From Nitrospirota bacterium (GTDB lineage Bacteria; Nitrospirota; Thermodesulfovibrionia; Thermodesulfovibrionales; Dissulfurispiraceae), in NCBI GenBank assembly GCA_963710375.1, contig CAVPZX010000005.1:352001-416000 (forward strand): a stretch of 64,000 nucleotides of DNA, given 5' to 3'. Of the stretch, positions 3,441 to 60,977 are shown one piece after another. Position 1 is the stretch's first letter. Each line of letters opens with the position of its first letter. The notes beneath the pieces were generated by a model, which was not told where the DNA came from, ran no database searches, and saw only the letters and a list, made by a program, of their open reading frames with translations. The translations under genes and the position numbers were made by a program.

Positions 3441-3546
3441 AAGTGAAAGGTGAATGGTGAATAGTGAATAGTGAACGGCTCAAGGCAAAACACAAAAAAA
3501 TCTTTAGCTTTTAACCATTCACTATTCACTATTCACCTTTCACCTT
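3441..3546. repeat. inverted short-tandem-repeat hairpin, 7-bp unit GTGAATA
   Basis: AAGTGAAAGGTGAATGGTGAATAGTGAATAGTGAAC ... CATTCACTATTCACTATTCACCTTTCACCTT. Confidence 0.9.
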
Positions 3547-3591
3547 CCATAATCTTGACTAATAAGGGCGGCAAAGGGTTAAATATAAGAT

Positions 3592-4347
3592 ATGGTAAAA
3601 ATCAAGACGTTAGCTTTTTTTATACTTATCATTGTTCTCACTGCGGCGGTTAGCGGGTGTGGCGGGAAGCAAGTTACGAAAGATGAAGACTTCAATTCGG
3701 AGAAATTTCTGGCCAAGGCAAATACACTTATTGATAAAGGTGAGTATGATGAGGCACGAAAGTTATTGCTTGAGGTAAAGAACAGGGACATAACAAAACA
3801 GTATGCTCCACTCGCGCAGTTGAGGATTGCCGATTCATATATAAGGGACAGCGACCCGGACCACGGGATCGAGGAATACAGAAAATTTCTTGATCTCTAT
3901 CCCGATAACCAGCGGGCATCATTTGCCCAGTACCAGATTGCCATGGCTTACTTCTCACAGATTGAAGGCGCTGACAGGGGGCTCAGCGCTGCACAGAAGG
4001 CCCTGCATGAATTTATCCGCTTAAAAGAAGTGTATCCGCGGAATCCTTACAGGGATATTATAGAACTTAGGGTCCAGAAGTGCAGGAAGGTCATAGCGGA
4101 AGGCGAGTTTATTGTCGGAGAATTCTACTATAAAAAGGAATCATATAAACCGGCAATAGACAGGTTTGAGCATCTGCTCAAGCAATTCCCCGATTATGAC
4201 GGGACCGATAAAACACTTCTTTTTTTAGGTAAATCATACAAGGCCATTAAAATGGTAGACAAGGCACGGGAGGAATTTAAAACACTCATCGAAAAGTATC
4301 CATCGAGCAGGTTTGTTAAAGAAGCCAGGAAGGGCCTCCAGGGTTAG
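3592..4347 (+). CDS. bamD: outer membrane protein assembly factor BamD
   Basis: Lipobox VSGC, TPR helices, GEFYYKKESYKPAIDRF. Confidence 0.9.
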   Translation: MVKIKTLAFFILIIVLTAAVSGCGGKQVTKDEDFNSEKFLAKANTLIDKGEYDEARKLLLEVKNRDITKQYAPLAQLRIADSYIRDSDPDHGIEEYRKFLDLYPDNQRASFAQYQIAMAYFSQIEGADRGLSAAQKALHEFIRLKEVYPRNPYRDIIELRVQKCRKVIAEGEFIVGEFYYKKESYKPAIDRFEHLLKQFPDYDGTDKTLLFLGKSYKAIKMVDKAREEFKTLIEKYPSSRFVKEARKGLQG

Positions 4348-4354
4348 CAGCACG

Positions 4355-5011
4355 GTGGATCATCATTACTATCCTGCCTTTATAGATCTGAGAGGGAAAC
4401 ATTGTATTGTTGTCGGTGGCGGAAAAGTAGCTGAAAGAAAGGTTGCCGCTCTGCTTCGTTCAGGGGCCAAGGTCACCGTGATAAGCCCTATTGTAACCGG
4501 TGTGCTTGCAGATCATTGCGAGAGTAAGCGCATAAAACATATAAAAAGGAAGTACCGGAAGGGTGACCTTGAAGATGCTTTTATTGTTATTGCCGCTGCA
4601 TCCGACAGGAGGGTAAACCAGGAGGTTTCCCTTGATGCGCCGTTCCTTTTGAACGTAGTCGATGCTCCTGAGCTGGCCAACTTTATTGTGCCTTCAGTTG
4701 TAAAAAGGGGACCACTGGCCCTCGCTGTGTCTACATCCGGCTCCAGCCCTGCGCTCGCAAAAAGTATCAGAAAGGAGCTGGAAGTGTTCTACGGTAAACA
4801 GTTTGGTCTATTCGTAGATTTCCTGGGGAAGCAGCGGAAAAAGACACTCATTAATATTGCGGACGATGGTATAAGAGAACGTCTTATGAAACAAATCGCC
4901 ACGCCTGAGATGCTCGGGCTGCTCAGAAAAGAGGGGTTTAAGACTACGAGGAACCTAATCTTGAAAATAATAAAAGGGCAAAGGTCGAATACTGCAAAAT
5001 GCTCAAGGTAG
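4355..5011 (+). CDS. precorrin-2 dehydrogenase/sirohydrochlorin ferrochelatase (SirC/CysG N-terminal type)
   Basis: YYPAFIDL, VVGGGKVAERK, AVSTSGSSPALA motifs. Confidence 0.9.
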   Translation: MDHHYYPAFIDLRGKHCIVVGGGKVAERKVAALLRSGAKVTVISPIVTGVLADHCESKRIKHIKRKYRKGDLEDAFIVIAAASDRRVNQEVSLDAPFLLNVVDAPELANFIVPSVVKRGPLALAVSTSGSSPALAKSIRKELEVFYGKQFGLFVDFLGKQRKKTLINIADDGIRERLMKQIATPEMLGLLRKEGFKTTRNLILKIIKGQRSNTAKCSR

Positions 5012-5922
5012 GAGTAATAGGAGTAGGGTACCTGGGACAGCACCATGCCCGTATTTTTGCAGAACTCGAGGATGTCAGGATGGTTGCCGTTGCCGACACG
5101 GACGGAGAGCGGGCCGGTGAGGTTGCGGTAAAGTACGGGTGCAAAGCATATACCGATTATCGGAAACTACTTGACGAAGTGGATGCTGTGAGCATTGTCA
5201 CTCCTACTACACTTCATTATGCGGTGGCAATGGATTGTATAATGGCCGGCAAGGATGTCCTCATCGAAAAGCCTATTACTGCCACGATAGAGGAAGCAGA
5301 CCGGCTCATTGCAGCATCCGACAAGACAGGAATGCTTATCCAGGTGGGTCATCTGGAGCGGTTTAATCCGGTTGTGCCAGCGCTGTACCCCTTACTGGAT
5401 TCTCCGTCATTTATCGAAGCGGAGCGCTTGTCTCCATTTCAGGGGAGAGGGATTGATGTGGATATTACTCTTGACCTTATGATCCATGATATTGACGTGG
5501 TGCTTTCAATAATGGGCGAAAGCGTTGTGAAAGATGTGAAAGCTGCGGGCGCAAAGTTTATTACTGATACAATCGACATGGCAAAGGTCTGGCTTGAGTT
5601 TTCTAACGGCGCCCATGCACTGCTTGCGGCAAGCAGGATGGCATCCGACAAATCGAGGAAGCTCACTGTTTTTCAAAAGGATTCATATCTTGTAATGGAC
5701 TACCAGCAAATGGAGATAAAAAAATTTTTCAGGCGGGGAGATGAGATTGTGAGCGATTCCATTTCGATTGAGAAGAGGGAGCCGCTCAAAGAGGAGCTGA
5801 AAGATTTTGTGAAATGTGTCGGCAACAGGAGCAGGCCGGCTGTATGCGCCATAAAAGGGCGCAATGCCTTAAAGATTGCTCTTGAGGCAGGGGCACAGAT
5901 AAAACAGGGGTGGCAACGTTAA
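4999..5922 (+). CDS. gnnA: Gfo/Idh/MocA oxidoreductase, probable UDP-GlcNAc 3-dehydrogenase
   Basis: GVIGVGYLG, EKP, GHLERFNP, DLMIHDID; adjacent to a DegT aminotransferase and lpxB. Confidence 0.75.
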   Translation: MLKVGVIGVGYLGQHHARIFAELEDVRMVAVADTDGERAGEVAVKYGCKAYTDYRKLLDEVDAVSIVTPTTLHYAVAMDCIMAGKDVLIEKPITATIEEADRLIAASDKTGMLIQVGHLERFNPVVPALYPLLDSPSFIEAERLSPFQGRGIDVDITLDLMIHDIDVVLSIMGESVVKDVKAAGAKFITDTIDMAKVWLEFSNGAHALLAASRMASDKSRKLTVFQKDSYLVMDYQQMEIKKFFRRGDEIVSDSISIEKREPLKEELKDFVKCVGNRSRPAVCAIKGRNALKIALEAGAQIKQGWQR

Positions 5923-7019
5923 TGAAACCTATGATTGATTTAAAAAAACAGTACCTGGGGGTCAAAGATGAAATCCTCCATACGGTAAATGAAATACTCG
6001 AGAGCTCACAATACATACTGGGCAAAAAAGTTTCTGAGCTTGAGACTGAGGTCAGGAGCTACCACGGGGTGAAGGAGGCTATCGGCGTTGCTTCCGGCAC
6101 AGATGCCCTCCACCTTTCATTGAAGTCTCTTGGAGTGGGGCCCGGAGATGAGGTCATCACAAGTCCCTTTACTTTTTTTGCCACTGTTGAGGCGATTTTA
6201 TACACCGGCGCAAAGCCGGTTTTCGCCGATATCGAGGCAGATACATACAATATTAATCCGTCGCTCATAGAGAAAAAAATAACGAAACATACGAAGGCAA
6301 TTCTACCGGTCCATATCTTCGGACATCCTGCCGGTATGGAAGAAATTATGGAGATTGCTGAAGGCAGCGGACTGAAGGTGGTGGAAGATTGCGCCCAGTC
6401 TTTCGGCGCTTCATTGAACGGCAGAAGAACAGGAAGCTTTGGTGATGCCGGATGTTTCAGCTTCTATCCGAGCAAAAATCTTGGCGCCTTCGGAGACGGA
6501 GGGATGATTGTCCTGAACAACGCGGAAGCCGCCGGTACAATAAGGATTTTGAGGAACCACGGCTCCAAGGGCGGCTACCGGCATGAGTGTCTCGGCTACA
6601 ATAGCAGGCTTGACGAAATACAGGCAGGAATTCTTCTTATCAAGTTGAGGAAGATCGACGAGTACAACAGCAGGAGGCGCGAGAACGCTTATCTCTATAA
6701 CCGGTTGCTTGCCGGCAGCGTTGTCTGCCCTGTAGAGCGGCCAGGCGCATTACATGTATACCACCAGTATACGATCAGGAGTGGGCGGCGGGACCATATC
6801 CAGCAGCGGTTGAAGGAGCAGGGGACCGCATCTGTCGTCTATTACCCCATACCTCTACATATGCAGAAGGCCCTGGAATTTTTGGGCCACGGTGAAGGAA
6901 GTTTTCCTGTGGCAGAGCAGGTTTCAAAGGAAGTACTCTCGCTGCCCATGTATCCGGAGCTTGATGCCGCGGATATACACCATGCCGCAGACATAATCCT
7001 CGCATGCTTGAAAGAATAA
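5910..7019 (+). CDS. gnnB: DegT/DnrJ/EryC1/StrS aminotransferase, probable GnnB
   Basis: EDCAQS and SFYPSKNLGAFGDGG PLP motifs; lipid A operon context. Confidence 0.75.
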   Translation: MATLMKPMIDLKKQYLGVKDEILHTVNEILESSQYILGKKVSELETEVRSYHGVKEAIGVASGTDALHLSLKSLGVGPGDEVITSPFTFFATVEAILYTGAKPVFADIEADTYNINPSLIEKKITKHTKAILPVHIFGHPAGMEEIMEIAEGSGLKVVEDCAQSFGASLNGRRTGSFGDAGCFSFYPSKNLGAFGDGGMIVLNNAEAAGTIRILRNHGSKGGYRHECLGYNSRLDEIQAGILLIKLRKIDEYNSRRRENAYLYNRLLAGSVVCPVERPGALHVYHQYTIRSGRRDHIQQRLKEQGTASVVYYPIPLHMQKALEFLGHGEGSFPVAEQVSKEVLSLPMYPELDAADIHHAADIILACLKE

Positions 7020-8167: not shown

Positions 8168-9419
8168 TTCTTTATATAGCGCTTTCTATGCTGCGGCACT
8201 GGCCTTCCTGCTCCCACTGGAATATTTAAAGCGATCATCTGAATTTCGGAAGCGATGGCTGAGGGAACGCTTCGGCCTTTATAAGGGGAATAGGTTTAAC
8301 GGCCGGCCTATCTGGATCCACGCAGTTTCAGTTGGAGAAGTCATTGCAACCGTCCCGCTTATCGAAAAGATTAAACAGAGACATCCTTCACTTGAAATTC
8401 TCATTTCAACGGTTACCGACACCGGGCAGCAGGTTGCCCTGGAGCGGGCAGGGGCTTATGCTCGAATTATTTATGTGCCTTTTGACCTGCCTTTCGCTAT
8501 TAAGAATGCCCTGCATCATATCCGGCCGTCTGCCTTTATCATAATGGAGACAGAGTTGTGGCCCAATGTTATCAGGATTATGAAAGATAGCGATGTTCCT
8601 GTGATACTGATGAACGGCAGATTGTCCGAACGTTCATATAATGGTTATAAAAAACTCGATTTCTTTATCGGAAAAGTTCTCCTGAACATCAGTCTTCTCT
8701 GCGTGCAGGATGATATCTACGCCGGGCGATTCGGGAATCTTGGCGCGTTACCTGAGCGGATAAAGATCATCGGCAGTTTCAAGTTTGATACACGGCCCTC
8801 TTCAGATATTCCGGAATGGACTGAAGCACTCCGCGGTCCTGTTATAATTGCAGGAAGCACGCACGAGACCGAAGAGGAACTGGTGCTCGATGCCTATATA
8901 CGGTTAAAAGCTTACGAGCCCGGCCTTAATCTTATTATTGCTCCAAGACATCCCGGGCGTTTCAGGACTGTGGAGGAACTGGTAAAGAAAAAGGGCCTGC
9001 AATATGTGAAGCGATCGGAGTTCGCAAATAGTCAGGACTCTCAGGCTTCCGGGCTCGTCGTCATCCTCGACGTTATCGGGGAGTTGTCTGCCCTGTATGG
9101 CGCTGCCGATATTGCGGTCATGGGGGGGAGTTTTATCGAACACGGGGGTCAGAATCCTCTGGAGCCGGCGTTCTGGGGAAAAGCTATTGTATGCGGCCCC
9201 CATATGGAAAACTTTCCTTTTATGGAGGAGTTTTATTCGTGTAGAGGAGCGGTCAGGGCAGAAGGCCCCCGACTTTATAATGTCCTGAAAGAGCTGCTCG
9301 ATTCACCCGAACAAATGCGGAGTATGGGAAGCATTGCAAAGAAACTCTACGAGAAGAACTCAGGCGCTACAGAAAGGGCAATGGAACTAATAGAAAAATA
9401 TATAGGCAATGGGCAATAG
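8160..9419 (+). CDS. waaA: Kdo transferase
   Basis: WIHAVSVGE, ETELWPN, GGQNPLEPA motifs. Confidence 0.96.
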   Translation: MFNSLYSAFYAAALAFLLPLEYLKRSSEFRKRWLRERFGLYKGNRFNGRPIWIHAVSVGEVIATVPLIEKIKQRHPSLEILISTVTDTGQQVALERAGAYARIIYVPFDLPFAIKNALHHIRPSAFIIMETELWPNVIRIMKDSDVPVILMNGRLSERSYNGYKKLDFFIGKVLLNISLLCVQDDIYAGRFGNLGALPERIKIIGSFKFDTRPSSDIPEWTEALRGPVIIAGSTHETEEELVLDAYIRLKAYEPGLNLIIAPRHPGRFRTVEELVKKKGLQYVKRSEFANSQDSQASGLVVILDVIGELSALYGAADIAVMGGSFIEHGGQNPLEPAFWGKAIVCGPHMENFPFMEEFYSCRGAVRAEGPRLYNVLKELLDSPEQMRSMGSIAKKLYEKNSGATERAMELIEKYIGNGQ

Positions 9420-9503
9420 GCAATAGGTAAAGGCTATGAATACAGAAAATAAAAAACAATTTTTTATCTTTTGCCTATCGCCTATTGCCTATCGCCTATC
9501 GCC
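9403..9503. repeat. inverted short-tandem-repeat hairpin, 7-bp unit AGGCAAT
   Basis: TAGGCAATGGGCAATAGGCAATAGG ... GCCTATCGCCTATTGCCTATCGCCTATCGCC; left arm contains the waaA stop. Confidence 0.9.
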
Positions 9504-9515: not shown

Positions 9516-10574
9516 ATGACACCGCTGGAGTTTTTATATTTCATCGGCTATATACTTAAAAAACGGCGCAGTTTAAGTCTCCAGAGAAGCCTTCCGAATG
9601 CTGTAATCAGCATAGGCAACATTACTGTCGGCGGGACTGGAAAGACGCCTGCGACCATAGCAGTTGCCCAGGAGTCTATAAAGAGGGGCTTTAGTCCTGT
9701 AATCCTGACGAGAGGATACAGGGGAAGGGTTAAAGGACCGTGTGTTGTCTCCAGTGATAAGCTGCCTGCCGGTAGTTTCATGGGAAATCCGCTTTCGGTT
9801 ATACATACTGTTAAAGACGGCGGTGATGAGCCGGTGCTTATGGCGGAACGACTCAAGGGTGTGCCTGTTATAAAATCGGCAAGCAGATACGAAGGGGGGA
9901 TTTTTGCCCTTCAATCTTTTTTATCCAATCCGGCAGAGCCTTTTATATTTATTCTTGACGATGGTTTCCAGCACTGGGGCCTTCACCGTGATATCAATAT
10001 TGTTCTTGTCAACGGTCTTAATCCTTTCGGCAACAGGAAGATGCTCCCGCTCGGGATATTGAGGGAGCCGCTGGGAGAATTGAAGCGTGCCGACATTTTT
10101 GTAATAACCAGATGCCGTGATGAGCGGCTGGCTGATGAACTCAGGGATGCTTGGCCGGGAAAGCCTGTCTATTTTTCGGAATACAGGGTTGTCAGGGCCA
10201 TTAACAAGGCGGCAGCCGAATTGCCGCTGGAAGCGCTCAGGAATAAACGTGTGTTTGCTTTTTGCGGTATAGCGCATCCGGAATCTTTCAGGCAGACACT
10301 TGCGTCTCTGTCATTGCTCCCTGCCGGATTCAAGGCGTATAGAGACCATTATTTTTATACACCTAAGGACTTGCATAATCTGCAGCGGCAAAGCAAGGGG
10401 CTTCAGTGCGATGTGCTGCTGACAACCGAAAAGGATATGATCAAGCTCAAAGAATTGAAAATTCCGGATACTGTTTTCAGTCTGGAGATGGAGTGGAACA
10501 CAGACCCTGCCTTTTATGATGAGGTGTTCAGCAGAATCGAAAAGGAAAGAGAGAAAGGTAAAGGTATAGGTTAA
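9516..10574 (+). CDS. lpxK: tetraacyldisaccharide 4'-kinase
   Basis: GNITVGGTGKTP, GDEP, DDGFQH, TTEKD motifs; start at ATG 9516. Confidence 0.96.
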   Translation: MTPLEFLYFIGYILKKRRSLSLQRSLPNAVISIGNITVGGTGKTPATIAVAQESIKRGFSPVILTRGYRGRVKGPCVVSSDKLPAGSFMGNPLSVIHTVKDGGDEPVLMAERLKGVPVIKSASRYEGGIFALQSFLSNPAEPFIFILDDGFQHWGLHRDINIVLVNGLNPFGNRKMLPLGILREPLGELKRADIFVITRCRDERLADELRDAWPGKPVYFSEYRVVRAINKAAAELPLEALRNKRVFAFCGIAHPESFRQTLASLSLLPAGFKAYRDHYFYTPKDLHNLQRQSKGLQCDVLLTTEKDMIKLKELKIPDTVFSLEMEWNTDPAFYDEVFSRIEKEREKGKGIG

Positions 10575-10616
10575 GAGATTATTTGCTTTACCTCTGCCTA
10601 TGCCTTTACCTTTCTC
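10551..10616. repeat. inverted short-tandem-repeat hairpin, 6-bp unit AGGTAW, between convergent genes
   Basis: GAGAAAGGTAAAGGTATAGG ... CCTATGCCTTTACCTTTCTC. Confidence 0.85.
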
Positions 10617-20447: not shown

Positions 20448-20535
20448 TAGGTAAAGGTAGAGGTAGAGGTAGAGCAAAAGCAATAACCAGGGCAGGCTTA
20501 ATCGAGTATTTTCTATACCTCTACCTATACCTCTG
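20448..20535. repeat. inverted short-tandem-repeat hairpin, 6-bp unit AGGTAG
   Basis: AGGTAAAGGTAGAGGTAGAGGTAGAG ... CTATACCTCTACCTATACCTCT. Confidence 0.85.
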
Positions 20536-20657
20536 TTTGGCATCGCGATACGGTTGCTAAAACAACCCCAAAAAGGGTAGATTATTACAATTCAAATACA
20601 TTAGACAATAAGCACCGGCATGGCAGTCTCAGTAACTACGTGTTTTAAGAGTGTAAA

Positions 20658-44246: not shown

Positions 44247-44321
44247 CAGGTTAAGGTTAAGGCAAGCGAAGAAAAAAGTTCTTAATGTTTTTTACTTAAC
44301 CTTAACCTCAACCTTAACCTG
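44247..44321. repeat. inverted short-tandem-repeat hairpin, unit AGGTTA, between tRNAs
   Basis: CAGGTTAAGGTTAAGG ... CTTAACCTTAACCTCAACCTTAACCTG. Confidence 0.85.
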
Positions 44322-44331
44322 TCTTTTACAA

Positions 44332-44740: not shown

Positions 44741-44817
44741 GGTGGGCGTAGTTCAATGGTTAGAGCACTGGATTGTGGATCCAGACGTTGGGGGTTCGAG
44801 TCCCCTCGCCCACCCCA
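44741..44817 (+). tRNA. tRNA-His(GTG)
   Basis: G-1, CTGGA-TT-GTG-GA-TCCAG, CCA end. Confidence 0.95.
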
Positions 44818-44866
44818 TTTGCAACCCTCAGCAAGACAATATCAGCTATGGTTATTTCTTTGCGCA

Positions 44867-46275: not shown

Positions 46276-46314
46276 GTCACTCTTCTCCTGCCCGGAGGAG
46301 TAGTATGCCCGCGA

Positions 46315-49300
46315 TTACATTTTTACTTTTTCTCTAGCCGTCTTGTCCTGCGATGTACTTTTATTCCTGCCTCTGCCGAGCTTCTCGATGACATAGTACA
46401 TCATCGGGATCAGGAATATGGCGATGCAGGTCGCCGCGAGCATGCCGCCGATGACGCCGGTGCCCATCACCCTGCGGGCGATGGCGCCGGAGCCGCTGGC
46501 GATTGCGAGCGGCAAGCAGCCAAGAATAAATGCGAAGGAGGTCATCAGGATCGGCCGCAGCCGCAGCCGTGCGCCGGTAAGCGCCGCGTCTTTCAGGTCC
46601 TGGCCTTTTTCGTATTCGTCTTTGGCAAATTCGACGATCAGAATGGCGTTCTTCGCCGCCAGGCCGATAAGCACGATGAGGCCGATCTGGGCATAGATAT
46701 TGAACTCCATCCCGCGGACCCAGAGTGCCGCAAACGCGCCGAAGACAGCGATGGGCGTGCTGAGCAGAACGCTGAAGGGCAGCGACCAGCTCTCGTAGAG
46801 GGCCGCAAGGATCAGGAACACGAAGAGCAGTGAGAGCGCGAAGATGGCTGCGGGCGGCACGCCCTGCTGCGCCTGTTTCTCCTGGAACGACATGCCGAGG
46901 TAATCGAAGCCCATGTCGGACGGCATGGTCTGGGCAAAGACCTCTTCCAGAGCCTTCATCGCCTGCGCCGAACTGTAGCCGGGTGCGGCCGTGGCATTGA
47001 TCTGGGCCGACCGGTAGAGGTTGTACCGCATGGTGAACTCCGGGCCCGTCGCGCGGCTCGACGTGCGTCACCGCCGCGAGCGGCACAGGGTCGCCGTTGG
47101 AGTTGCGCACGTAGAACTGGCCCAACTGCTTGACGTCGGTCCGGTAGTCGCCCTCGGCCTCCACGTACACCTGCCACTGCCTGCCGAAACGGTTGAAGTA
47201 GTTTACGAATGCCCGCCCATGAAGGCCTGGAGCGTGCCATACACCTGGCCGAGGTCCACCCCCTCGCTCAGCACCTTGTCGCGGTCCACATCCACGAAAT
47301 ACTGCGGCACACTTGGTAGAATGGTCGTAGCTTACCCGCGCCAGTTCCGGCCGCTTTTGGGCCGCGGCAATGAACTTCTGCGTATTGTCCGCCAGGAAAC
47401 CGATGTCCTTGCCGGCGCGGTCTTCGAGAATGAATGTCACGCCCCGCAGGTGCCGACCCCCTGGATGGCCGGCGGGGAGAATGCGAAGGCGTTCCCCTGC
47501 GGCAGTTGGCCCAGTTCGCGGTTAAGGCGGGCCATGATGGCCGGGGCCTTCTCCTCCGGACTTTTCCGCTCGTCCCATTCCTTGAGACTGATGAAGAAGA
47601 AGCCGCTGTAGGTGTTCCGCACATAGCTCAGGAGGTTGAAGCCGATGACCGTGGTACAGTACTCAACGCCGGGGGTGTTCAAGATAATCCGCTCCGCCTC
47701 GCGGGTGGCCTCGGCGGTGCGCTGGAGCGATGCGGCATTGGGCAGTTGAATGACGGCGTAAAGGTAGCCCTGGTCCTCCTCGGGCAGAAAACCGCCGGGA
47801 CCCGCCTGCCGAGCAAGCCGATACCCAGAGCTGCCACCAGGAGAATGGCGAACCCGATCACGGCCTTGCGGATGACAATGCCGGACAAGCTTACGTAACC
47901 TCGGTAGTACGTTTGAACATCCGGTTGAACCAGCTGTAAAACCAGCCCAACGGACCGCCCGTTTCCTTCTTCGGGCGGAGCAGGACGAGCAAAGCGCGGG
48001 ACTGAGCGTCAGGGCGTTGAAGGCGGACAGGAGCACCGAGATGGCGATGGTGACGGCAAACTGTGGTAGAGCCGCCCGGTGATGCCGGGAATGAAAACGG
48101 TCGGGAGAAATACGGACGCCAGGACGAGCGCGATGGCCGTGACCGGGCCGGCAACCTCCTCCATGGCCTTGAGGGCCGCTTCCTTCGGCGTCAGTCCTTC
48201 CTCGATATGGCGTTCCACTGCCTCAACCACGACGATGGCGTCGTCCACGACGAGTCCGATTGCCACGACCATCCCCATGAGGGCAATCGGGTTGATGGAG
48301 AAGCCGAGGAGGGGAAAAAAGGCGAAGGTGCCGATGAGCGAGACCGGCACGGCGATCGCTGGAATGAGCGTGGCCCGCCAACCCTGGAGGAAGACGAACA
48401 CCACGATGATCACCAGGACCATCGCAATAAAGAGGGTCACGACGATCTCCTTAATCCCTGCGGTGACGGGGAGGGTGGTGTCGAGCGCGATGTCGTAATC
48501 CAGGTCGGCCGGAAAGGACTCCTTGAGCTTGGCCATCACTTTCTTGGCGCCGTCTGCCGCCTCCAGGGCGTTCGTGCCGGGCAGTTGGTAAAGCGCGAGG
48601 ATCCCTGACGGCTTGCCGTTGAAGCGCCCCTGAATGTTGTAGTCCTGGGCGCCCAACTCGATGCGGGCGACGTCCTTCAGGCGCACCAGGGAGCCGTCAG
48701 GGTTGGCGCGCAGGACGATCCGGCCGAACTCCTCGGGGGTCACAAGCCGCCCCTGCGCCCGGATCGCGTAGGTGAATTCCTGGCCCGGCGGGATGGGCTC
48801 GCCGCCGACCTGTCCGGCGGGGTTCACCGTGTTTTGCTTCTGAAGCGCGTCGACGATCTCGGGAACGGTGATATTGAGCTTGGCCAGCAGGTCCGGGCGC
48901 ACCCAGCAGCGCATGGCGTACTGGCCGGCGCCGAAGACCGTGACACTGGCGATCCCCCTCACCCGCGTCAGCTGGTCGTTTAAGTGGATATAGGCGTAGT
49001 TGGCCAGGAAGGTGGCGTCGTAGGTCCCTTTGGGCGAATAGAGGGCGAAGAGCATGAGCGGCGCGGAAAGAGCTTTCTGGACCGTCACCCCGTAGTTGCG
49101 CACGTCGATCGGGAAGCTGCGATTCCGCCTGGGACTCGCGCAGTTGGGCGAGCACCTGGTCGGTATTCGGGTCGGTCTTCACGTCGAAGTTCACGGTCAT
49201 CCGCATCAACCCGTTGTTGGGGTTGAGGGAATACATGTAGTTCATGTTGTCCACGCCGCTCATCTGCTGCTCGATAGGCGTGGCCACGGACTGCTCGATC

Positions 49301-49466
49301 GTCAGGGCGTCGGCGCCCACATAAGTGGCCTGAACGAGGATTTCGGGGGGACGATATTGGGATACTGCGCCACCGGCAGCCCTGACATTGCGACCAGGCC
49401 GACGATGACTGTGATGATCGCGATGACCATCGCCACGATGGGGCGTCTGATGAAGAAGCGGTACAT
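46315..49466 (-). pseudogene. AcrB-family RND permease, multiply frameshifted
   Basis: [26 protein letters not shown] and RLRPILMTS spread over at least five ORF fragments; GC-rich. Confidence 0.85.
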
Positions 49467-49471
49467 GACGG

Positions 49472-50656
49472 TCTACTGCCCTGCAGCCGGGGGCCGGCGC
49501 GCAGGTGAGGTTTCCTGATCGGGTGGAACTCCCGGGGACGAATGGCTTTGCGGTTACGGCAATGCCCTGTTTCACCTTCTGTACCCCTTCGACCACGACC
49601 CGCTCTCCAGGCTTCAAGCCCTCGTCGATCATCCAGAGCGGGCCTACGATGTCCCCTGCCTTGACCGTCCGGATATCTATCCGGTTGTCAGCTCCCACGA
49701 CTGCCACCTGGTAGCTCCCCTGCAGTTCCGTCACAGCCCGCTGAGGCACGAGCAGGGCCCCCTTTTTAGTTCCGACCAATACACGGACACTTACGAACTG
49801 TCCGGGACGGAGCAGATTGGCCGGATTCGGAAAGAGTCCGCAACCCGGAGCGTCCCTGTTCTTACGTCCACCTCACGGTCAAAGGCGTAGAATGTGCCTT
49901 TGTATGGATAGAGAGACCCGTCCGCCAGGATAAGTTCCAACTTCAGCTTTCTTGCATGTTCGAGACCGCGGCCTCTGACGAGAACTGTTTCATGAAGTCG
50001 ATATAGGCCTGTTCGTTGATTGTGTAGTACACCTTGATCGGGTTGATCGTCGAAACTGTTGTCAGTTCGCCGGCCTGGGCCGGTCCAACCAGGTCTCCCG
50101 ACCTGGGCCCTGGCGAGGCCGGCCATGCCATCGATGAGGGAGGTGATTTTCGTGAAGCTGAGATCGAGCCTGGCCTTCTCAACCGCTGCCCTGGCTGCGG
50201 TAACTGCGGCCAGGGCTGACTGCTCTGCTCCGATAGCGTCGTCCAGGTCCTTCTTGCTCAGTGCGTTCTGTTCAGCGAGAGGTCTGATCCGGTCAAGATT
50301 GCCCTGGCATTCTTATACTGTGCTTCCTGCTGCGCCAGGTCTCCCATTGTCTGGTCCAAAGCAGCCTGGAAAGGCCGCGGGTCGATCTCGAACAGCACCT
50401 GTCCCTTCTTCACTAAATCACCTTCCTTATAGTACTGCCTGATAAGGTAGCCCGTGACCTGTGCCCTTATAGTGGCGTTGACCATGCCGTCGGTGGTGCC
50501 GACCCATTCGTGCTGGATAGGGACGTCTTTTTGAATGACCTCCATGACTTCCACAACCGGAGGCTGAGGCGGGGGTTTCTGCTCTTTCTTGCATCCTGCC
50601 AGAAAGATGGAAACAGAACAGAAGATAATGATGATTCTAAAAAGTGCCGGACTCAT
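49472..50656 (-). pseudogene. RND membrane fusion protein, multiply frameshifted
   Basis: LAGC lipobox, IRAQVTG, LLVPQRAV, GLKPGERVV in separate frames. Confidence 0.8.
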
Positions 50657-50789
50657 TAGGTCATCCCCTATTAAATATTTTTACAGTAACAATTATAACA
50701 GATTATTGATTGATAATCAGGCATAAAAATTCTATTGTTATTTCAAATCTGACGACGTTGTAAAAAGTCTGGGAAAGCGTTTTTTCGCC

Positions 50790-50809
50790 ATTCCCGTGAA
50801 AACGGGAAT
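50790..50809. repeat. ATTCCC-N8-GGGAAT palindrome (REP/dRS3-like)
   Basis: ATTCCCGTGAAAACGGGAAT followed by CCAG. Confidence 0.55.
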
Positions 50810-50947
50810 CCAGCCTCCCTTCAATCAGAAAAAACCGCACTAAAATAATCACGGCGGTAGCTTAGCGTGTTGATAATAACGCCAAAACTTGCTAATAAGC
50901 CCATCATACAGTATACTTATTGTAGATACAATATAGGAGGTAGAAAT

Positions 50948-51193
50948 ATGACCACAAAGATACAGCAGTGGGGAAATAGTCTGGCTTTGAGAATTCCGAA
51001 GGCATTTGCGGTGGAAGCAAATCTTCACAAGGGAGCGATTGTTGATGTTTCGGAAGAAGGCGGCAAAATCATCCTTACACCCGTTAAGAAGAAAAGGAAA
51101 TTCACTTTAGAAGGTTTATTGTCGGGGGTAACAAAGGAGAATATCCATGGCGAGATTAGCACCGGGAAGAGGGTGGGTAAGGAAATATGGTAA
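50948..51193 (+). CDS. mazE: AbrB/MazE antitoxin
   Basis: KIQQWGNSLALRIP; RBS AGGAGG. Confidence 0.92.
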   Translation: MTTKIQQWGNSLALRIPKAFAVEANLHKGAIVDVSEEGGKIILTPVKKKRKFTLEGLLSGVTKENIHGEISTGKRVGKEIW

Positions 51194-51533
51194 AACAGAA
51201 GGATTTTATTCCGGACCGGGGGCATATCGTTTGGATAGACTTTGACCCGCAGTCCGGACATGAGCAAGCAGGCAGGAGACCCGCCCTTGTGGTATCGCCG
51301 GCCGCCTACAACGAGAAAATCGGCTTGGCTTTATTGTGTCCTATAACGAGACGGGTGAAAGGTTATCCTTTTGAGGTTGGAATTCCAAAAGGGTTAGAGT
51401 GTATCCGGTGTAATTCTCGCAGACCAGATAAAAAGTCTTGATTGGAAGAGTCGGAACACAGAGTTGTAGTTGCAATGCGCCTCACGAGGTTGTCAATCTT
51501 GTCCTGGAGAAACTGGCTACGCTCTTGTCGTAA
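51187..51533 (+). pseudogene. mazF: MazF/PemK toxin, frameshifted
   Basis: PDRGHIVW, GHEQAGRRPALV, CPIT; ILADQIKSLDW continues in another frame after about 51396. Confidence 0.85.
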
Positions 51534-51658
51534 CGCCGGCTCAGTTCTCAATCCATGCAGTCTCAATTCTTGACAGACAGAGGAACGAGGCAGAGTCGGG
51601 CCATCCTTTGCTACAAATAGGGCACAGTCTCATGTTACAATAATTGCAGACCTTTTAT

Positions 51659-53029: not shown

Positions 53030-53105
53030 GGTAAAGGTTAAGGTTGAGGTTGAGGGAAAGCTTTTTTTGTTAGCTGTTTCTTAACCTTAACCTTAACCTC
53101 TACCT
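53030..53105. repeat. inverted short-tandem-repeat hairpin, unit AGGTTR
   Basis: GGTAAAGGTTAAGGTTGAGGTTGAG ... CTTAACCTTAACCTTAACCTCTACC. Confidence 0.9.
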
Positions 53106-53111
53106 ATCTTC

Positions 53112-53756: not shown

Positions 53757-53848
53757 AATTTTGAATGTTGAATTTTAAATTTTGAATTGTGGAAGAAAAA
53801 ATTGCTTCACTTCATTAATTCAAAACTCAGCATTCAAAATTCAAAATT
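53757..53848. repeat. inverted short-tandem-repeat hairpin, 7-bp unit TTGAATK
   Basis: AATTTTGAATGTTGAATTTTAAATTTTGAATT ... AATTCAAAACTCAGCATTCAAAATTCAAAATT. Confidence 0.85.
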
Positions 53849-53849
53849 G

Positions 53850-54481: not shown

Positions 54482-54545
54482 TAAGGTTAAGGTTGAGGTT
54501 AAGGTTAAGTCTTTGTCTTTTTGCTTAACCTCAACCTTAACCTTA
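54482..54545. repeat. inverted short-tandem-repeat hairpin, unit AGGTTR; contains lepA stop
   Basis: TAAGGTTAAGGTTGAGGTTAAG ... CTTAACCTCAACCTTAACCTTA. Confidence 0.9.
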
Positions 54546-56333
54546 CTCTTTCACCTTGAGAACAGTCAGGAAGGCTTCCTGGGGGATTTCTACCTTTCCG
54601 ATCTGCTTCATTTTCTTTTTGCCCTCTTTTTGCTTTTCGAGCAGCTTTCTTTTTCTTGTTATGTCGCCGCCATAGCATTTTGCAAGGACATTTTTTCTCA
54701 TTGCCTTGACACTTTCCCGCGCAATTATCTTGCCGCCGATGGCAGCCTGTATGGCGATTTCAAACATCTGCCTCGGGATGACCTGTCTCAGCTTTTCCAC
54801 AATTTGCCTGCCCTTATAATAAGATTTCTCACTGTGGACAATCAAGGAGAGGGCATCCACAGGCTCTCCGTTAAGCAGCACATCCAGCTTTACAAGTTTG
54901 GACGGACGGTAGCCTATGAATTCGTAGTCCATAGATGCGTAACCGCGCGAAACAGACTTTAGACGGTCATAAAAATCCCAGAGGATCTCGTTGAGCGGTA
55001 TCTCGTAGGCAACCATTATACGGTCTTTGCTGATGAAAGTGAATTCCGTCTGAGTGCCTCGTTTTTCCTGGCAGAGTTCCAGTATCTGTCCTATATATTC
55101 CTGCGGCACAAAGACCGAAACTTTTACATACGGTTCTTCTATCTTTTCAAAAGAGTCCGGAAGGCTGCTAGGGTTATCAATAAAAAATTCATCCCCCTTT
55201 ACACCAGTCACTTTGTAGATGACGGTAGGGGCGGTGGTTATCAGCGAAAGCTCAAATTCTCTTTCGAGCCTCTCCTTTATGATCTCCATATGCAGGAGGC
55301 CCAGAAAGCCGCAGCGGAAGCCGAAACCCAGGGCCGAAGAGGTCTCCGGCTCAAATCTGAACGACGAATCGTTCAGCCGCAATTTTTCGAGCGCGTTTTT
55401 CAAATCCTCATACTGTATATTTTCGACCGGGTAGAGACCCGAAAATACCATGGGCTTGATTTCTTTGTACCCTGACAGCGGGGTTTCAGCGGGACGGGCG
55501 GCGTCGGTAATTGTATCTCCTATCTTAGTGTCCCCAACCGTCTTGATGCCGGCAATAATATAACCTACATCACCTGCCGAAAGCTGGGACACAGTCTCCA
55601 TTTTAGGCCGAAAAACTCCGACCTTGTCGATCTCGTACTCTTTGCCCGCAGCCATCAATCTCATCTTCATACCGGGCCGCACTGTTCCGTCGAAGACCCT
55701 GACAAGGACGATCACCCCCTGATAGTTGTCAAACCATGAGTCGAAGATAAGGGCCTTTAGCGGCGCTTCATCGGTGCCTGCGGGAGGAGGGACTTTCCTG
55801 ACAATTGCCTCGAGTATCTCCTTTGTGCCTATGCCCTCCTTTGCGCTTGCGAGGATTGCCTCGGAGCAATCTATTCCTATTGCATTCTCTATCTGTTCCC
55901 TAACTTTCTGCGGTTCAGCACCCGGCAGGTCTATTTTGTTGATCACGGGAATGATTTCATGATTATGTTCGAGGGCGAGATATGTATTGGCAAGGGTTTG
56001 CGCCTCAACTCCCTGTGTGGCGTCTACAACCAACAGGCTTCCTTCGCAGGAAGCGAGGCTTCTGGATACTTCATATGAAAAATCAACATGTCCGGGGGTG
56101 TCGATAAGATTGAGTACATACTCATTGCCATCATCGGCCTTATAGCCGAGCCTTACTGCGTGTGCCTTGATCGTAATACCCCGCTCCCGCTCTAGGTCCA
56201 TTGAATCTAGCACCTGCTCCATCATATCTCTGGAGCTTACGGCTCCCGTATACTCCAGCAGCCTGTCGGCAAGAGTGGATTTTCCGTGGTCGATATGTGC
56301 GATTATAGTAAAATTACGGATGTTTTTTGGCAT
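54543..56333 (-). CDS. lepA: elongation factor 4
   Basis: [38 protein letters not shown]. Confidence 0.98.
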
Positions 56334-56347: not shown

Positions 56348-56433
56348 AATTTTGAATGTTGAATGCTGAATGTTCAACGGAGGATGAAATAATGTATTTT
56401 ATATTTAAATTCCACAGTTCAACATTCAAAATT
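56348..56433. repeat. inverted short-tandem-repeat hairpin, 7-bp unit TTGAATG
   Basis: AATTTTGAATGTTGAATGCTGAATG ... TTCAACATTCAAAATT. Confidence 0.8.
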
Positions 56434-56440
56434 CTTAGCA

Positions 56441-57514: not shown

Positions 57515-57638
57515 AGGCTAAAGGCAAAAGGCTAAAGGGCAAAAGCTAAAGGATAAATAAGAAAAAAGAACTAAAAATTAGAAGTATGTTTTTCTTTATT
57601 TTTTTCCCCTTAGCCTTTAGCCCTGAGCCTTTTGCCTT
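57515..57638. repeat. inverted short-tandem-repeat hairpin, 7-bp unit AGGCWAA
   Basis: AGGCTAAAGGCAAAAGGCTAAAGGGCAAAAGCTAAAGG ... CCTTAGCCTTTAGCCCTGAGCCTTTTGCCTT. Confidence 0.85.
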
Positions 57639-57657: not shown

Positions 57658-58581
57658 ATGGACCTTTACCTGATCGACGGAAACTCCTATTTCCACAGGG
57701 CTTTCCATGCCATAAAAGCGCTTGCGAACTCAAAAGGCGCTCCCACAAACGCCATTTATGGTTTCACCACCATGATACTAAAGATACTCCGGGAGAAAAA
57801 ACCTGATGCCCTGGCAATAGTCTTTGATTCTCCGGTGCCGACCCAACGGCACAAGCTCTACGAGCAATATAAGGCGCATCGGCCCGAAACACCCGGCGAT
57901 CTTATCATTCAGATTCCCCGGATCAAGGAGATCATAAAGGCCTTCAATATTCCAGTTTTCGAAATGCCGGGCTACGAGGCGGACGATGTGATCTGCACAC
58001 TTGCAAGGAAGGCCGCTTCACAGCTGTCCCGCGTATTTATTGTCACCGGTGATAAAGACATGATGCAGGCGGTTGATAGTTTCATTAAAATTTACGATCC
58101 TATGAAAGACGTAGTTATTGACAAGGAATATATAACCGGGCGCTTCGAAATGCCTCCTCAAAATATTGCTGAAATTATGGCACTTACAGGAGATGCTGTC
58201 GATAATATACCTGGAGTAAAGGGCATAGGAGAGAAAACCGCGAAAGGACTTCTCTTGAAGGCAGGGGGGCTGGACAATCTGCTGAGTCATCCCGAAAAGA
58301 TCGACAATGTGCGTCTGAGAAAGCTTATCATCGACAACATCGGGGATATACGGCTTAGCAAGGAGCTTGCAACCATAGATATGGGCCTGCCTGTTGAGGC
58401 GCATCTGGAGGACCTTATGATCAAAGAGCCTGATTGGGCAGCGCTTCTTCACCTGTTTACAGAATTGGAATTCAGAAGCCTTCTAAAGCTCATCCCCTCT
58501 CATGGCTATGCGCCACGCGGAGAATATTTCACGATCACAAGCCGTAAACATCTTAAGGAATTCCTCGGGCTTGCCAGATGA
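57658..58581 (+). CDS. polA: DNA polymerase I 5'-3' exonuclease domain (separate ORF)
   Basis: IDGNSYFHRAFH, YEADD, GDKD, DNIPGVKGIGEKTA. Confidence 0.85.
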   Translation: MDLYLIDGNSYFHRAFHAIKALANSKGAPTNAIYGFTTMILKILREKKPDALAIVFDSPVPTQRHKLYEQYKAHRPETPGDLIIQIPRIKEIIKAFNIPVFEMPGYEADDVICTLARKAASQLSRVFIVTGDKDMMQAVDSFIKIYDPMKDVVIDKEYITGRFEMPPQNIAEIMALTGDAVDNIPGVKGIGEKTAKGLLLKAGGLDNLLSHPEKIDNVRLRKLIIDNIGDIRLSKELATIDMGLPVEAHLEDLMIKEPDWAALLHLFTELEFRSLLKLIPSHGYAPRGEYFTITSRKHLKEFLGLAR

Positions 58582-60371
58582 AACAATGTTCGCTTTTCGG
58601 AGATAGTGTAAATGATTCACAGCAAGAAGTTCACGCGGTAATCGATACCGGCACTATTTCTGAATTATCGTTCGATATTGAGGCGACGGGGAGGGACCCC
58701 CTTAGTGATTCAATTGTAGGAATAGCCCTTTGCAAGGAAAAAGGAAGATCATATTATGTTCCGGTCAGGCACACCGGACCATGCAATGTTCAGGATGCCC
58801 TGTCCATTTTGACGCCTGTACTTGAGGACCCTGCCGTAGCAAAGGTAGGACATAATCTGAAATACGATATGCTGATACTTAGGCAGGAGGGAATTCACGT
58901 GAGAGGAATGCTCTATGATACCATGGTGGCGTCCTACCTGCTGAACCCGATTAAGCCTGACCACAGCCTCCAGGATTCGGCAGTTGAGCACCTCGGGCAC
59001 AAGAAACGCCCGTTTACCGAAGTCCTGGGCAAACGGGCATCGTTTGCAGAGGTCCCCATTGAAGAGGCTACGCAGTATGCTGCCGAAGATGCCGAACTGG
59101 CAATGGAACTGAAAGATATTCTCTTTGACAAGCTGCAAAGTGCCGGACTGCAACGCATCTACTTTGAAATCGAAATGCCGCTTATCTATATACTGACTGA
59201 TATGGAAGAGACCGGAATCAAAATTAATAGAGAACGTACCGAGGAATTATCAAAGGAACTCGACCGTGAGCTGGAGGAGCTGCAGTCAAAGATATATATA
59301 CTTGCCGGCAGCACCTTTAACATAAACTCTCCGCGTCAGCTCGGCAAGGTGCTCTTCGATGACCTCGGGCTGAAGCCGATGAAAAAAACTAAAACCGGCT
59401 TTTCTACAAGTATGGATGTCCTTGAGGAACTCTCAAAGAGCCACGAACTTCCACGAGAAATACTTAATTACAGGTCTTTTTATAAGCTCAAGACAACCTA
59501 TACTGATGCGTTGCCTAAACTTATCAATGCAAGAACCGGCCGGATCCATACCTCTTTTAACCAGACAGTCACTTCAACAGGAAGGCTTAGCAGCAGCGAT
59601 CCCAATCTTCAGAATATTCCCATTCGTGGTGAGTGGGGGACTAAAATCAGAGAGATTTTTATTGCTGACAAAGGTCATATGCTTGTCTCAGCAGACTATT
59701 CCCAGATTGAGTTGCGGATATTGGCACATATGAGTGAAGACGAAAGCCTTATTGACGCTTTTAAAAAAAACATCGACGTTCATACCAGAACAGCCTCGGA
59801 GATATTCGGGGTGCCGCTCGAAGCAGTGACCTCCGACATGAGGAGGGCGGCAAAAGTCGTGAATTTCGGGATCGTGTATGGTATGAGTGCCTATGGCTTA
59901 TCTGACGCACTCTCTATTAGCCCCAAAGAGGCAGCCGTCTACATAGAAAATTATTTTAAAAAGCATGACGGGGTAAAGCGTTTTATGGAACATACTATAC
60001 AGATTGCCAGGCAGAAGGGATACGTCACCACACTTCTGGGCAGAATAAGACCCCTACCTGAAATCACCAGCACCAATGCGGCGATCAGACAGCAGGCAGA
60101 GAGGCTGGCCATTAATACACCTGTTCAGGGCACAGCTGCTGATTTGATTAAAATAGCGATGGTGCGCGTTTCAAAGGCGCTGCAGGCGAGAAATCTTTCA
60201 ACGAAAATGCTGCTGCAGATCCATGACGAGCTTCTTTTTGAAGTGCCGGAAAATGAGATCGACGAAATCCAGGAGTTAATCGCCTTGGAAATGGAGGCTG
60301 CCCTCGATCTTTCGGTCCCACTAAAAGTGGAGTTTGGGCGGGGAAATAACTGGGCGGATGCCCACCATTGA
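58578..60371 (+). CDS. polA: DNA polymerase I 3'-5' exonuclease plus polymerase domains
   Basis: FDIE, GHNLKYD, YAAEDA, DYSQIELR, KVVNFGIVYG, IHDE. Confidence 0.88.
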   Translation: MKQCSLFGDSVNDSQQEVHAVIDTGTISELSFDIEATGRDPLSDSIVGIALCKEKGRSYYVPVRHTGPCNVQDALSILTPVLEDPAVAKVGHNLKYDMLILRQEGIHVRGMLYDTMVASYLLNPIKPDHSLQDSAVEHLGHKKRPFTEVLGKRASFAEVPIEEATQYAAEDAELAMELKDILFDKLQSAGLQRIYFEIEMPLIYILTDMEETGIKINRERTEELSKELDRELEELQSKIYILAGSTFNINSPRQLGKVLFDDLGLKPMKKTKTGFSTSMDVLEELSKSHELPREILNYRSFYKLKTTYTDALPKLINARTGRIHTSFNQTVTSTGRLSSSDPNLQNIPIRGEWGTKIREIFIADKGHMLVSADYSQIELRILAHMSEDESLIDAFKKNIDVHTRTASEIFGVPLEAVTSDMRRAAKVVNFGIVYGMSAYGLSDALSISPKEAAVYIENYFKKHDGVKRFMEHTIQIARQKGYVTTLLGRIRPLPEITSTNAAIRQQAERLAINTPVQGTAADLIKIAMVRVSKALQARNLSTKMLLQIHDELLFEVPENEIDEIQELIALEMEAALDLSVPLKVEFGRGNNWADAHH

Positions 60372-60395: not shown

Positions 60396-60424
60396 TTGAC
60401 AAATAAGCATCTTCTTGTTATCGT
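60396..60424 (+). promoter_or_regulatory. sigma-70 promoter of hup
   Basis: TTGACA-17-TATCGT. Confidence 0.6.
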
Positions 60425-60484
60425 GTATACCAGTCTTGAAATTATAAAAAACTTTTTTATTGGGAGAAAGGGGGGAACAAGGAT

Positions 60485-60757
60485 ATGACTAAGGCAGATC
60501 TTATAGACAAAATTGCATCGGGCGCAAGTCTCTCAAAGACTGATGCGGGCAAGGCACTGGATGCAACTGTTGATGCAGTTAAATTAGCTCTCAAAAAAGG
60601 GCACAAAGTGACGCTGGTCGGTTTCGGAACATTTTCAGTTTCAAAAAGAAAAGCGAGAAAGGGCCGCAACCCTAGGACAGGCGCAGAAATCAAGATACCC
60701 GCAGCAAAGGTTCCAAAATTTACTGCTGGAAAGACATTAAAAGACGCTGTGAAGTAA
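60485..60757 (+). CDS. hup: HU DNA-binding protein
   Basis: VGFGTF, GRNPRTG, PKFTAGK. Confidence 0.97.
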
Positions 60758-60830
60758 ACATTAACGGGGCAAGCGAGAAGTTATAGTTATAAATAGATAT
60801 CCCAATAACTCTTGGTAAACTGTTAGAGAT

Positions 60831-60866
60831 AAGAGGTGAGGAGATCACTCCCCCACCTCTTTTTTA
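60831..60866 (+). terminator. intrinsic terminator
   Basis: AAGAGGTGAGGAG...CCCCCACCTCTT followed by T tract. Confidence 0.65.
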
Positions 60867-60880
60867 TTGCAAATTAAAGG

Positions 60881-60977
60881 CAGGCAAAGGTAAAGGTATA
60901 GGTATAGGTAGAGAAAAAGTCTGATAAAAGCTGTCTTAGTTTTTTTGGATCTATACCTATACCTTTACCTTTGCCTG
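60881..60977. repeat. inverted short-tandem-repeat hairpin, 6-bp unit AGGTAW, 27-bp perfect IR
   Basis: CAGGCAAAGGTAAAGGTATAGGTATAG / CTATACCTATACCTTTACCTTTGCCTG. Confidence 0.92.

Follow-up and report, generated by a model that had tools for sequence, protein, structure and literature searches.

According to the accessible text of two preprints (10.1101/2021.07.10.451892; 10.1101/2024.10.14.618302), REPINs occur as several populations per genome, each of which follows a cognate gene and can outlast it, and different REPIN types found at one extragenic place are read as overwriting. A second described system is the rRNA intervening sequence (IVS) that carries an S23p gene. In the accessible part of a report on Coxiella burnetii, the helix-45 IVS with S23p has tandem heptamers, variable in copy number, just upstream of its open reading frame (ORF) (PMC4990558). 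The over-representation of heptamers was noted in 2007 and left without detailed follow-up, as recounted in the accessible text of Rehm 2015 (PMC4692102). That text describes for Xanthomonas a GGGAATC repeat with a preference for four units and 70-75 convergent inverted pairs per genome, treats it as one G-quadruplex-forming simple sequence repeat at stable loci, and makes no link to a gene family. Here we describe hairpins with inverted tandem-repeat arms in a 64,000-nt stretch, hereafter the window, of a Nitrospirota bacterium of the Dissulfurispiraceae (assembly GCA_963710375.1, contig CAVPZX010000005.1; in our notation G000:C5:352001-416000). The genome under study, G000, comprises 3.19 Mb in 9 contigs and is 98.8% complete; its relatives carry labels of the type G001. 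The hairpins are best read as gene-less copies of cassettes of the rRNA-IVS type that behave like REPINs. We lean towards an interpretation in which they belong to a family of repeat-armed inserts, where each clade of four-helix-bundle proteins reads its own repeat word and promotes its copying.

Hairpins with tandem-repeat arms

A sequence-only reading of the window had listed 19 elements, and all 19 comprise a tandem array followed by its reverse complement. Seventeen were recovered by a family-aided scan, the element starting at 21397 was recovered as a long pair with a 362-nt spacer, and that at 40071 was recovered by folding. Genome-wide, a motif-free scan for arrays of period 5-10 paired with an inverted array (spacers of up to 150 nt) returned 236 pairs (137 of period 7, 72 of period 6 and 27 of period 8), against 0, 0 and 0 in three dinucleotide shuffles in 200-nt blocks. 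In 232 of these 236 pairs the purine-rich arm precedes the other. The family-aided scan, in which family word patterns were added to the motif-free scan and which itself favours intact cores, gave 248 elements, with no pair of opposite arm order and none in reversed sequence. Several window elements are spanned with zero base differences by contigs from four public runs (two studies, one possibly the source sample), which argues that the hairpins are not assembly artefacts. No Rfam family matches them, tRNAs alone reaching the gathering threshold, and their two inverted arms lack the direct repeat-spacer array of a CRISPR locus, as had been stated. The hairpins are real and not ordinary, and a dedicated mechanism very likely lies behind them.

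The elements share one architecture: an A-rich lead-in, about four tandem units, a spacer and the inverted array, each unit comprising a fixed core of 3-5 bases and two to three free positions. The stem has a median length of 26 bp (222 elements). The spacer either holds a gene or passes from an A-rich first half (46% A) to a T-rich second half (46% T), the halves being barely more complementary than shuffles. The first arm had been described as G-rich; it is purine-rich, and at 53757 and 56348 it is not G-rich. Likewise, the view of an element as two arms around a short spacer applies to most members, with the exception of 21397, which encloses a 123-aa gene, and 30540, whose spacer of ~80 nt is conserved host coding sequence.

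Two further claims of the sequence-only reading, that the units are locus-specific and that no element was being copied, had to be abandoned. The words recur at many loci and fall, by labels assigned by eye, into about 11 families whose cores are ~94-100% invariant, with two or three positions free. In the family-aided scan the larger families are the 6-mer AGGYHN (71 elements), GTGAANN (52), RGGYNAW (38), GAAGDTGN (18), TGAATKY (11) and GAATTAN (10); the smaller are CACDGAGR (7), GCAWAGN (7), GCAGTAN (5), GGHGAAYC (4) and AGGACTG (4), and 21 elements are unassigned. Four is the commonest number of units per arm in six of the seven families profiled, unit number varies, and collapsed and one-armed forms exist. 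Moreover, unlinked copies share spacers, such that whole elements have been copied between unlinked sites: the best unlinked match scores at least 40 for 27 of 178 spacers and for none of the half-shuffled spacer controls, and 64 of 75 good spacer matches lie within the same family. The subfamily of the element at 3441 has 11 unlinked copies on 7 contigs, which share one common spacer and have scrambled free positions. Adenine mutagenesis of the type found in diversity-generating retroelements (DGRs) was ruled out as the source of the free positions, because the core adenines are invariant.

Four-helix-bundle cassettes and their repeat words

Six genes of the TIGR02436/PF05635 type are found in G000, each beside a different repeat family, and together they cover the four most abundant families (71, 52, 38 and 18 elements). 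Some of these paralogues are cleanly enclosed by arms and others lie within arm mosaics. A broader profile found no further paralogue in G000, and among 18 correctly ordered long pairs of inverted arms in this genome only four-helix-bundle cassettes stood out as cargo; 19 long pairs of opposite order all come from one repeat cluster. Inspected by eye, arrays flank 32 of 32 four-helix-bundle genes in one locus set and about 35 of 40 in another. Cassettes occupy the same sites as gene-less elements: at the junction of tRNA-Val and a tetratricopeptide repeat (TPR) gene (20742), G006 has an RGGYNAW cassette filled with a four-helix-bundle gene, and gene-less elements stand in G000 and in G003, the latter of the 8-mer GAAGDTGN family. 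Proximity of elements to their cognate gene is clear for small families only; large families are spread over 8-9 of the 9 contigs. Long mosaics of AGGACTG arms were observed near the cognate four-helix-bundle gene at G000:C5:211000-217700 and 267900-270500, some of them overlapping called genes.

The structural model of the window's protein (21423-21794; predicted local distance difference test score 94) most closely resembles XCC0516 (Z 19.5, root-mean-square deviation 1.1, 112 aligned), followed by BT_0352 (Z 16.3) and the DGR protein Avd (Z 14.6 and 14.1), with generic bundles at 13.2; the protein scores under the Avd cut-offs. Q40, S47, N51, E54, S74 and E77 are invariant residues. Weak TIGR02436 matches without arms were also seen at two loci, L129 and L130, where the downstream sequence resembles a DGR template repeat; these are probably true avd genes. 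The ratio of nonsynonymous to synonymous substitution rates (dN/dS) of four-helix-bundle genes is 0.05-0.16 in nine pairs, three further pairs being saturated, which indicates that the genes are under purifying selection.

Repeat family follows protein clade. On a tree of 59 proteins, from which three that lack the anchor motif and 10 matches that were unlabelled, short or weak had been left out, family requires 32 changes (minimum 30), compared with a mean of 48.5 after shuffling, and none of 200 shuffles was as low. Since 18 groups are singletons and kin share labels, the tree shows coupling, not co-evolution. The coupling extends across phyla. Of 80 loci there, 77 were testable, and at 32 a strict test confirmed matching inverted arrays; of 42 gene-less hairpins lying no more than 10 kb from a four-helix-bundle gene, 24 agree with the arms of that gene (permutation mean 5.6, maximum 15). 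A Xanthomonas vasicola homologue, lying between acc genes, is framed by GGGAATC-type arms.

Family abundance also tends to accompany the gene. It was counted as three-unit pattern matches in 41 genomes, in which matches overlap and include those beside the gene, and several genomes are incomplete. GTRTCARA has 58 and 54 matches in two gene-bearing genomes from two genera, 0-6 elsewhere and none in the three closest kin of G003. GGTKAAGR has 13 and 14 matches in two gene-bearing genomes from two taxonomic families, at several unlinked sites, and none in the 39 others, and GAAGDTGD has 27-53 in four genomes with the gene and 0-3 in the 37 without. The remaining families are less tidy: the 6-mer gives 141, 37, 33, 28, 11 and 4 matches in genomes with the gene and 40, 33, 7, 5 and at most 2 in those without, and GCAWAGN gives 36 and 1 with, and 32, 20 and 15 without. 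By hand tally, at least 10 matches occur in 14 of 16 genome-family pairs with the gene, against 5 of 189 without.

Placement and turnover in the window and its relatives

The window carries lipid A genes, rpoBC, an rplKAJL-nusG-secE-tuf-tRNA cluster, rib genes, lepA and polA. Its elements, and the pair within 23S rRNA elsewhere in the genome, are as follows (window positions unless a contig is given; strand where one applies).

3441-3546: gene-less element, GTGAA-NN (7-mer), of the 11-copy spacer-sharing subfamily
9403-9503: gene-less element, RGGYNAW (7-mer), left arm over the waaA stop; G003 has the 8-mer CACDGAGR here
10551-10616: gene-less element, 6-mer AGGYHN, over the lpxK stop; G003 has the GCAGTA family here
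20448-20536: gene-less 6-mer element between a TetR-type gene and tRNA-Val
20742-20830: gene-less 6-mer element after tRNA-Val
21397-21426, plus: left arm of the cassette that bears the gene (AGGCWAT x4), extending into the start codon
21423-21794, plus: four-helix-bundle gene, 123 aa, TIGR02436 (120 bits, cut-off 24), PF05635 23S_rRNA_IVP
21788-21818, minus: right arm (reverse-complement array) of the gene-bearing cassette, over the stop codon
30540-30688: two in-frame arms of the 8-mer GGHGAAYC, each in its own loop of a Mut7-C gene (30301-30867, minus), with host coding sequence as spacer
30868-30934: gene-less 6-mer element following the rpoC stop; G003, G004 and G006 have different families
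39010-39110: gene-less 6-mer element at the rplL-rpoB junction
40071-40166: compound GCAGTA-family element, with additional arrays on its left, where the rplJ leader is variable; G003 and G004 have the TGAAT family
40281-40397: gene-less RGGYNAW element directly 3' of the rplA stop; not in G003 or G004
41564-41595, minus: solo left arm (RGGYNAW) after the nusG stop, an addition to the 19; relatives have full elements or are empty
42337-42400: gene-less 6-mer element, tRNA-Trp to secE
44247-44322: gene-less 6-mer element, tRNA-Thr/tRNA-Tyr; empty in G006, G007 and G008, GTGAA family in G002 and G003
53030-53108: gene-less 6-mer element between riboflavin genes
53757-53848: gene-less TGAATKY element; G008 empty, RGGYNAW family in G003
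54482-54548: gene-less 6-mer element, lepA to signal peptidase; G008 empty
56348-56436: gene-less TGAATKY element; G008 empty
57515-57630: gene-less RGGYNAW element upstream of polA
60881-60979: gene-less 6-mer element
G000:C2:686597-686680 and 1070228-1070311: gene-less 6-mer hairpin within the 23S gene, with a second element just upstream of 23S

Genome-wide, 223 of the 248 elements are intergenic and some lie in frame inside genes. They are placed just after stop codons or tRNA ends, in leader and rRNA helix loops and, rarely, in in-frame protein loops; ribosomal-protein operons, tRNA clusters and 23S rRNA all contain them. With genes called by a simple gene caller, junction occupancy is flat (co-directional 173/2298, convergent 25/352, divergent 23/350), and at co-directional junctions the element starts a median of 5 nt past the upstream gene's stop. 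A role in termination, which the sequence-only reading had offered, and with it the identification of the hairpins as intrinsic terminators, is not supported, since convergent junctions are not enriched and elements lie inside operons, tRNA clusters and 23S. The 23S elements occupy a helix loop (Rfam model positions ~275-295) in both G000 rRNA copies, where 138 nt replace 6, and represent a candidate IVS at an unusual helix; they are 2 of the 248 genome copies, and none of the 19 window elements lies in 23S.

Alignment of orthologous intergenic regions (the window, ~420 kb each of G003 and G008, and the rpl/rpo/tRNA region in 20 relatives) found both empty and filled alleles. Junctions in the rpl/rpo/tRNA region are empty or differently filled even among the four closest genomes, whose genes are 89-96% identical, and clean empty alleles are present in essential operons. 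Among 206 orthologous junctions of G000 and G003, which are ~89% identical, 147 are empty in both, 13 hold the same family, 16 hold different families (16 of 29 jointly occupied), and 9 and 21 are occupied on one side. Junctions are re-used between these two genomes (odds ratio 12.4, p 1e-7, same-family sites left out), and orthologous elements of the same family are 47-93% identical, mostly under the genomes' own ~89%. The 23S loop holds a 6-mer element in G000, G005 and G007 and 16-19 nt in G001 and G033; in G003 its two rRNA copies hold two different families, neither of them the 6-mer. At the Mut7-C locus, G002 and G003 have the second arm alone, and in further relatives that loop carries different families. 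Several empty alleles are internal-deletion remnants, and elements decay to solo arms. Neither a target-site duplication nor a target motif was seen by eye in 19 filled/empty junction pairs and the operon series. Nested forms, observed in the rplJ leader, in the 23S loop and in G037, indicate that the loop of an older element can harbour a newer one; a 340-nt pair in G037 is such a nested compound element.

Other features of these regions were noted. The conserved leader upstream of rplJ (40180-40270), presumably the L10 leader by its position, has no Rfam match at the gathering score, which the inserted elements may explain. In G006 (L007) a different, GC-rich palindromic element of the CCCCTCC...GGAGGGG type occurs in the rplJ leader and the Mut7-C loop, the same loops as the hairpins. 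At 44794-50704, an operon for resistance-nodulation-division (RND) efflux is split into many short ORFs, and contigs of the four public runs differ there by 4-15% with indels; as the flanks show 0 differences, this stretch may be poorly polished or a divergent allele. It is followed by an 890-nt MazE/MazF-like toxin-antitoxin module before tRNA-Arg (50704-51595), whose toxin ORF is apparently broken and which contigs of all four runs skip. The polA gene (57658-60371) appears as two overlapping ORFs, 5'-3' exonuclease then polymerase, and at 27140-28227 two similar small hydrophobic ORFs without a Pfam match (27140-27472 and 27889-28227) stand on either side of a third, uncharacterised ORF.

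Possible mechanisms and comparison with known systems

Under the interpretation that we favour, each protein clade would recognise its own repeat word, and the protein would help the insert to be copied to neutral sites, whether new or already filled, as proposed for RAYT/REPINs. A pentameric ring, as in solved relatives, could bind the tandem cores on single-stranded DNA or RNA, and about four units per arm would suit a five-membered ring. Having no known catalytic domain, the protein would need to enlist a polymerase, nuclease or recombinase, either the host's or a transient one; Avd is a non-catalytic partner of a reverse transcriptase and no reverse transcriptase was found in G000, a combination that suggests cognate binding with a recruited catalyst. 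The scrambling of free positions between copies points to error-prone copying or re-made arms, and site re-use may arise because new elements often land in the loops of older ones, whose arms then erode. A broader proposal, which we put forward only tentatively, is that S23p/Avd-like four-helix bundles drive, with sequence specificity, a widespread, transposase-free process of copying and overwriting, in which each pentamer would read its own 6-9-base word, remake arms and insert hairpins into transcribed non-coding spots and RNA loops. This would account for rRNA IVSs, scattered four-helix-bundle genes and the heptamer excess of bacterial genomes alike.

Several observations weigh against protein-driven copying. 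No catalytic partner was found: no PF00078 reverse transcriptase or GxxExxY nuclease gene was detected in G000 (98.8% complete), and the sole Y1_Tnp gene (G000:C2:219441-220386) has its own terminal inverted repeats of ~27 bp, unrelated to the arrays, and no element within 10 kb. A recent jump, which a pair of near-identical paralogous copies would betray, is not in evidence; the median best identity is 0.74, and identity of at least 0.9 occurs in 2 of 211 elements, both the rRNA-operon duplicate. The Mut7-C arms flank conserved host sequence, which simple insertion does not explain, and site re-use relative to the element-poor G008 (160 junctions) is not significant (odds ratio 4.2, p 0.08). 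The nominal p-value for co-occurrence overstates its case; kin are not independent, families were labelled by eye, and the five tested families were chosen after the tree had been seen. The cognate clade was not found in some genomes rich in a family: 6-mer arrays are abundant in G003 (40) and G001 (33), and GCAWAGN in G002 (32), G037 (20) and G001 (15), where neither nine sampled stretches nor a protein search yielded the cognate GCAWAGN gene. Conversely, G024 has the GCAWAGN gene and 1 match, and G023 the 6-mer gene and 4. Five of the ~11 G000 families (37 elements) lack a cognate gene. Both co-occurrence and clade coupling would, moreover, be expected too if the gene were a passenger on the founding copy.

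This last possibility, in which the protein binds arms for RNA processing, stability or translation and the elements spread by host recombination, slippage and horizontal junction exchange from an imported gene-bearing copy, is to our minds unlikely, though several observations speak for it. The genes are under strong purifying selection without a known catalytic motif, their structural relative Avd is a non-catalytic RNA-binding scaffold, abundant families exist for which no gene was found, recent identical copies are lacking, and junction occupancy is better conserved than junction sequence. Homology-driven exchange alone cannot, however, place an unrelated word family at a site, and a newly gained clade comes with dozens of dispersed copies that its closest kin lack; the clean empty alleles in essential operons argue in the same direction. 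That the stems are instead selected RNA structures (RNase III sites, terminators or stabilisers) evolving in place is improbable. Stems of median 26 bp, in elements that at co-directional junctions begin a median of 5 nt past the upstream stop and in a genome that encodes RNase III, would suit such a role, and the accessible text of the Coxiella report has its heptamer-bearing IVS stem cut by RNase III (PMC4990558). Yet selection for RNA pairing was not seen on the sense strand, where G.U pairs number 150 and A.C pairs 147, and a strand-energy test was null, the sense fold being more stable in just 95 of 173. Arms of one element pair better than random arms of the same family in two of eight families, marginally in one and not in five. 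With convergent junctions not enriched and sites empty in close relatives, selection on RNA structure also leaves the fixed words and the protein coupling unexplained; incidental RNase III cleavage is compatible with protein-driven copying too.

The strict polarity of the arms (248 vs 0) invites a different explanation, in which the arms arise by de novo synthesis where DNA is broken or nicked. An enzyme would extend both 3' ends with purine-rich repeat tails, and joining of the tailed ends would yield the purine-first order; staggered nicks would leave arms around host DNA, as at Mut7-C. The spacer composition (46% A, then 46% T, in halves barely more complementary than shuffles) fits, as does the behaviour of one element's arms as near-independent draws from the family. 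Spacer homology between unlinked copies nevertheless requires a template or copying, and no repeat-synthesising polymerase was found, such that we consider this very improbable. Random microsatellite slippage with template switching would produce variable unit numbers and collapsed or one-armed forms, but not the absence of pairs in shuffles, the polarity, the few fixed words across phyla, the shared spacers or the clade coupling; it is already largely refuted and hardly credible. 

Protein-driven copying, if correct, would amount to a repeat-guided DNA-writing activity of a new type, and a protein that only binds would still be a reprogrammable reader of short tandem words. Either can be approached through the six natural protein-word pairs of one genome, which form a specificity matrix for binding and swap tests. 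The proposal joins, in testable form, three loose ends: the role of the very common S23p and four-helix-bundle proteins, the origin of bacterial heptamer repeats, and the rise and change of rRNA IVSs. It also carries a warning for annotation, as arms create spurious start codons, put low-complexity inserts into proteins and make junctions of conserved operons hypervariable.

Parts of the system are in print separately. The sequence-only reading knew of no named element class to match it; this does not apply to the parts, as the Xanthomonas GGGAATC pairs and the Coxiella IVS are described and single-unit versions are already published (Rehm 2015), but does apply to the whole, for which no full account was found. 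No paper linking the four-helix-bundle family to dispersed repeat hairpins was found in the accessible literature, and the accessible text of 2026 genome-language-model preprints has no match for 'heptamer' or 'four-helix'. The Xanthomonas arms, in the accessible text, resemble ours in orientation, sense-strand G-rich arms lying near stops and antisense-strand ones near starts; solo arms in G000 number 28 against 5 near stops (sense) and 17 against 6 near starts (antisense). Most families here, however, have no GGG runs and cannot form G-quadruplexes, and they turn over fast. The Beggiatoaceae TAACTGA repeats (MacGregor 2015, PMC4679880) are likewise heptamer arrays that lie between genes and stop shortly upstream of start codons, and in the relative G025 (L064) a four-helix-bundle cassette has this word as its right arm. 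They differ in being direct repeats with a proposed regulatory role, and the accessible text contains neither 'four helix' nor 'intervening'. DGR Avd shares the fold and, in the accessible text (10.1101/2023.10.23.563531), is pentameric, positively charged, RNA-binding and needed for copying, though non-catalytic; it works with an adjacent reverse transcriptase and a template repeat, whereas no PF00078 match was found in G000. MITEs (miniature inverted-repeat transposable elements) are also short non-coding inverted-repeat elements with a gene-bearing relative, but here no target-site duplication was seen, near-identical copies are lacking, and no transposase with matching ends was found.

The closest parallels remain the two systems introduced at the outset. 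A PF05635 protein in the loop of a long terminal stem, as in the S23p rRNA IVS, is found at 21397 and in some other cassettes, tandem heptamers close upstream of the ORF are a common trait, and insertion into an rRNA helix loop is found in both 23S copies, there without a gene. The differences are that 246 of the 248 copies lie outside 23S and most lack an ORF, that about 11 word families with cognate paralogues are present, and that all 19 window elements lie away from any rRNA helix. With REPIN-RAYT systems the hairpins share their form (~100-nt extragenic inverted repeats with a variable spacer, hundreds per genome, here 248 with 223 intergenic), the tendency of a population to follow its cognate gene, here a four-helix-bundle clade and with exceptions, the persistence of populations beyond their gene, and the swapping of types at one site. 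They differ in that the arms are tandem 6-8-mers without an internal palindrome and the cognate protein is all-helical and Avd-like, not a Y1/HUH transposase; its gene, furthermore, is carried within the element and moves between sites and genera, whereas the accessible texts describe RAYTs as vertically inherited and non-jumping. The system thus behaves as REPIN-RAYT does and has the build of an S23p IVS, and on the features tested it belongs to neither.

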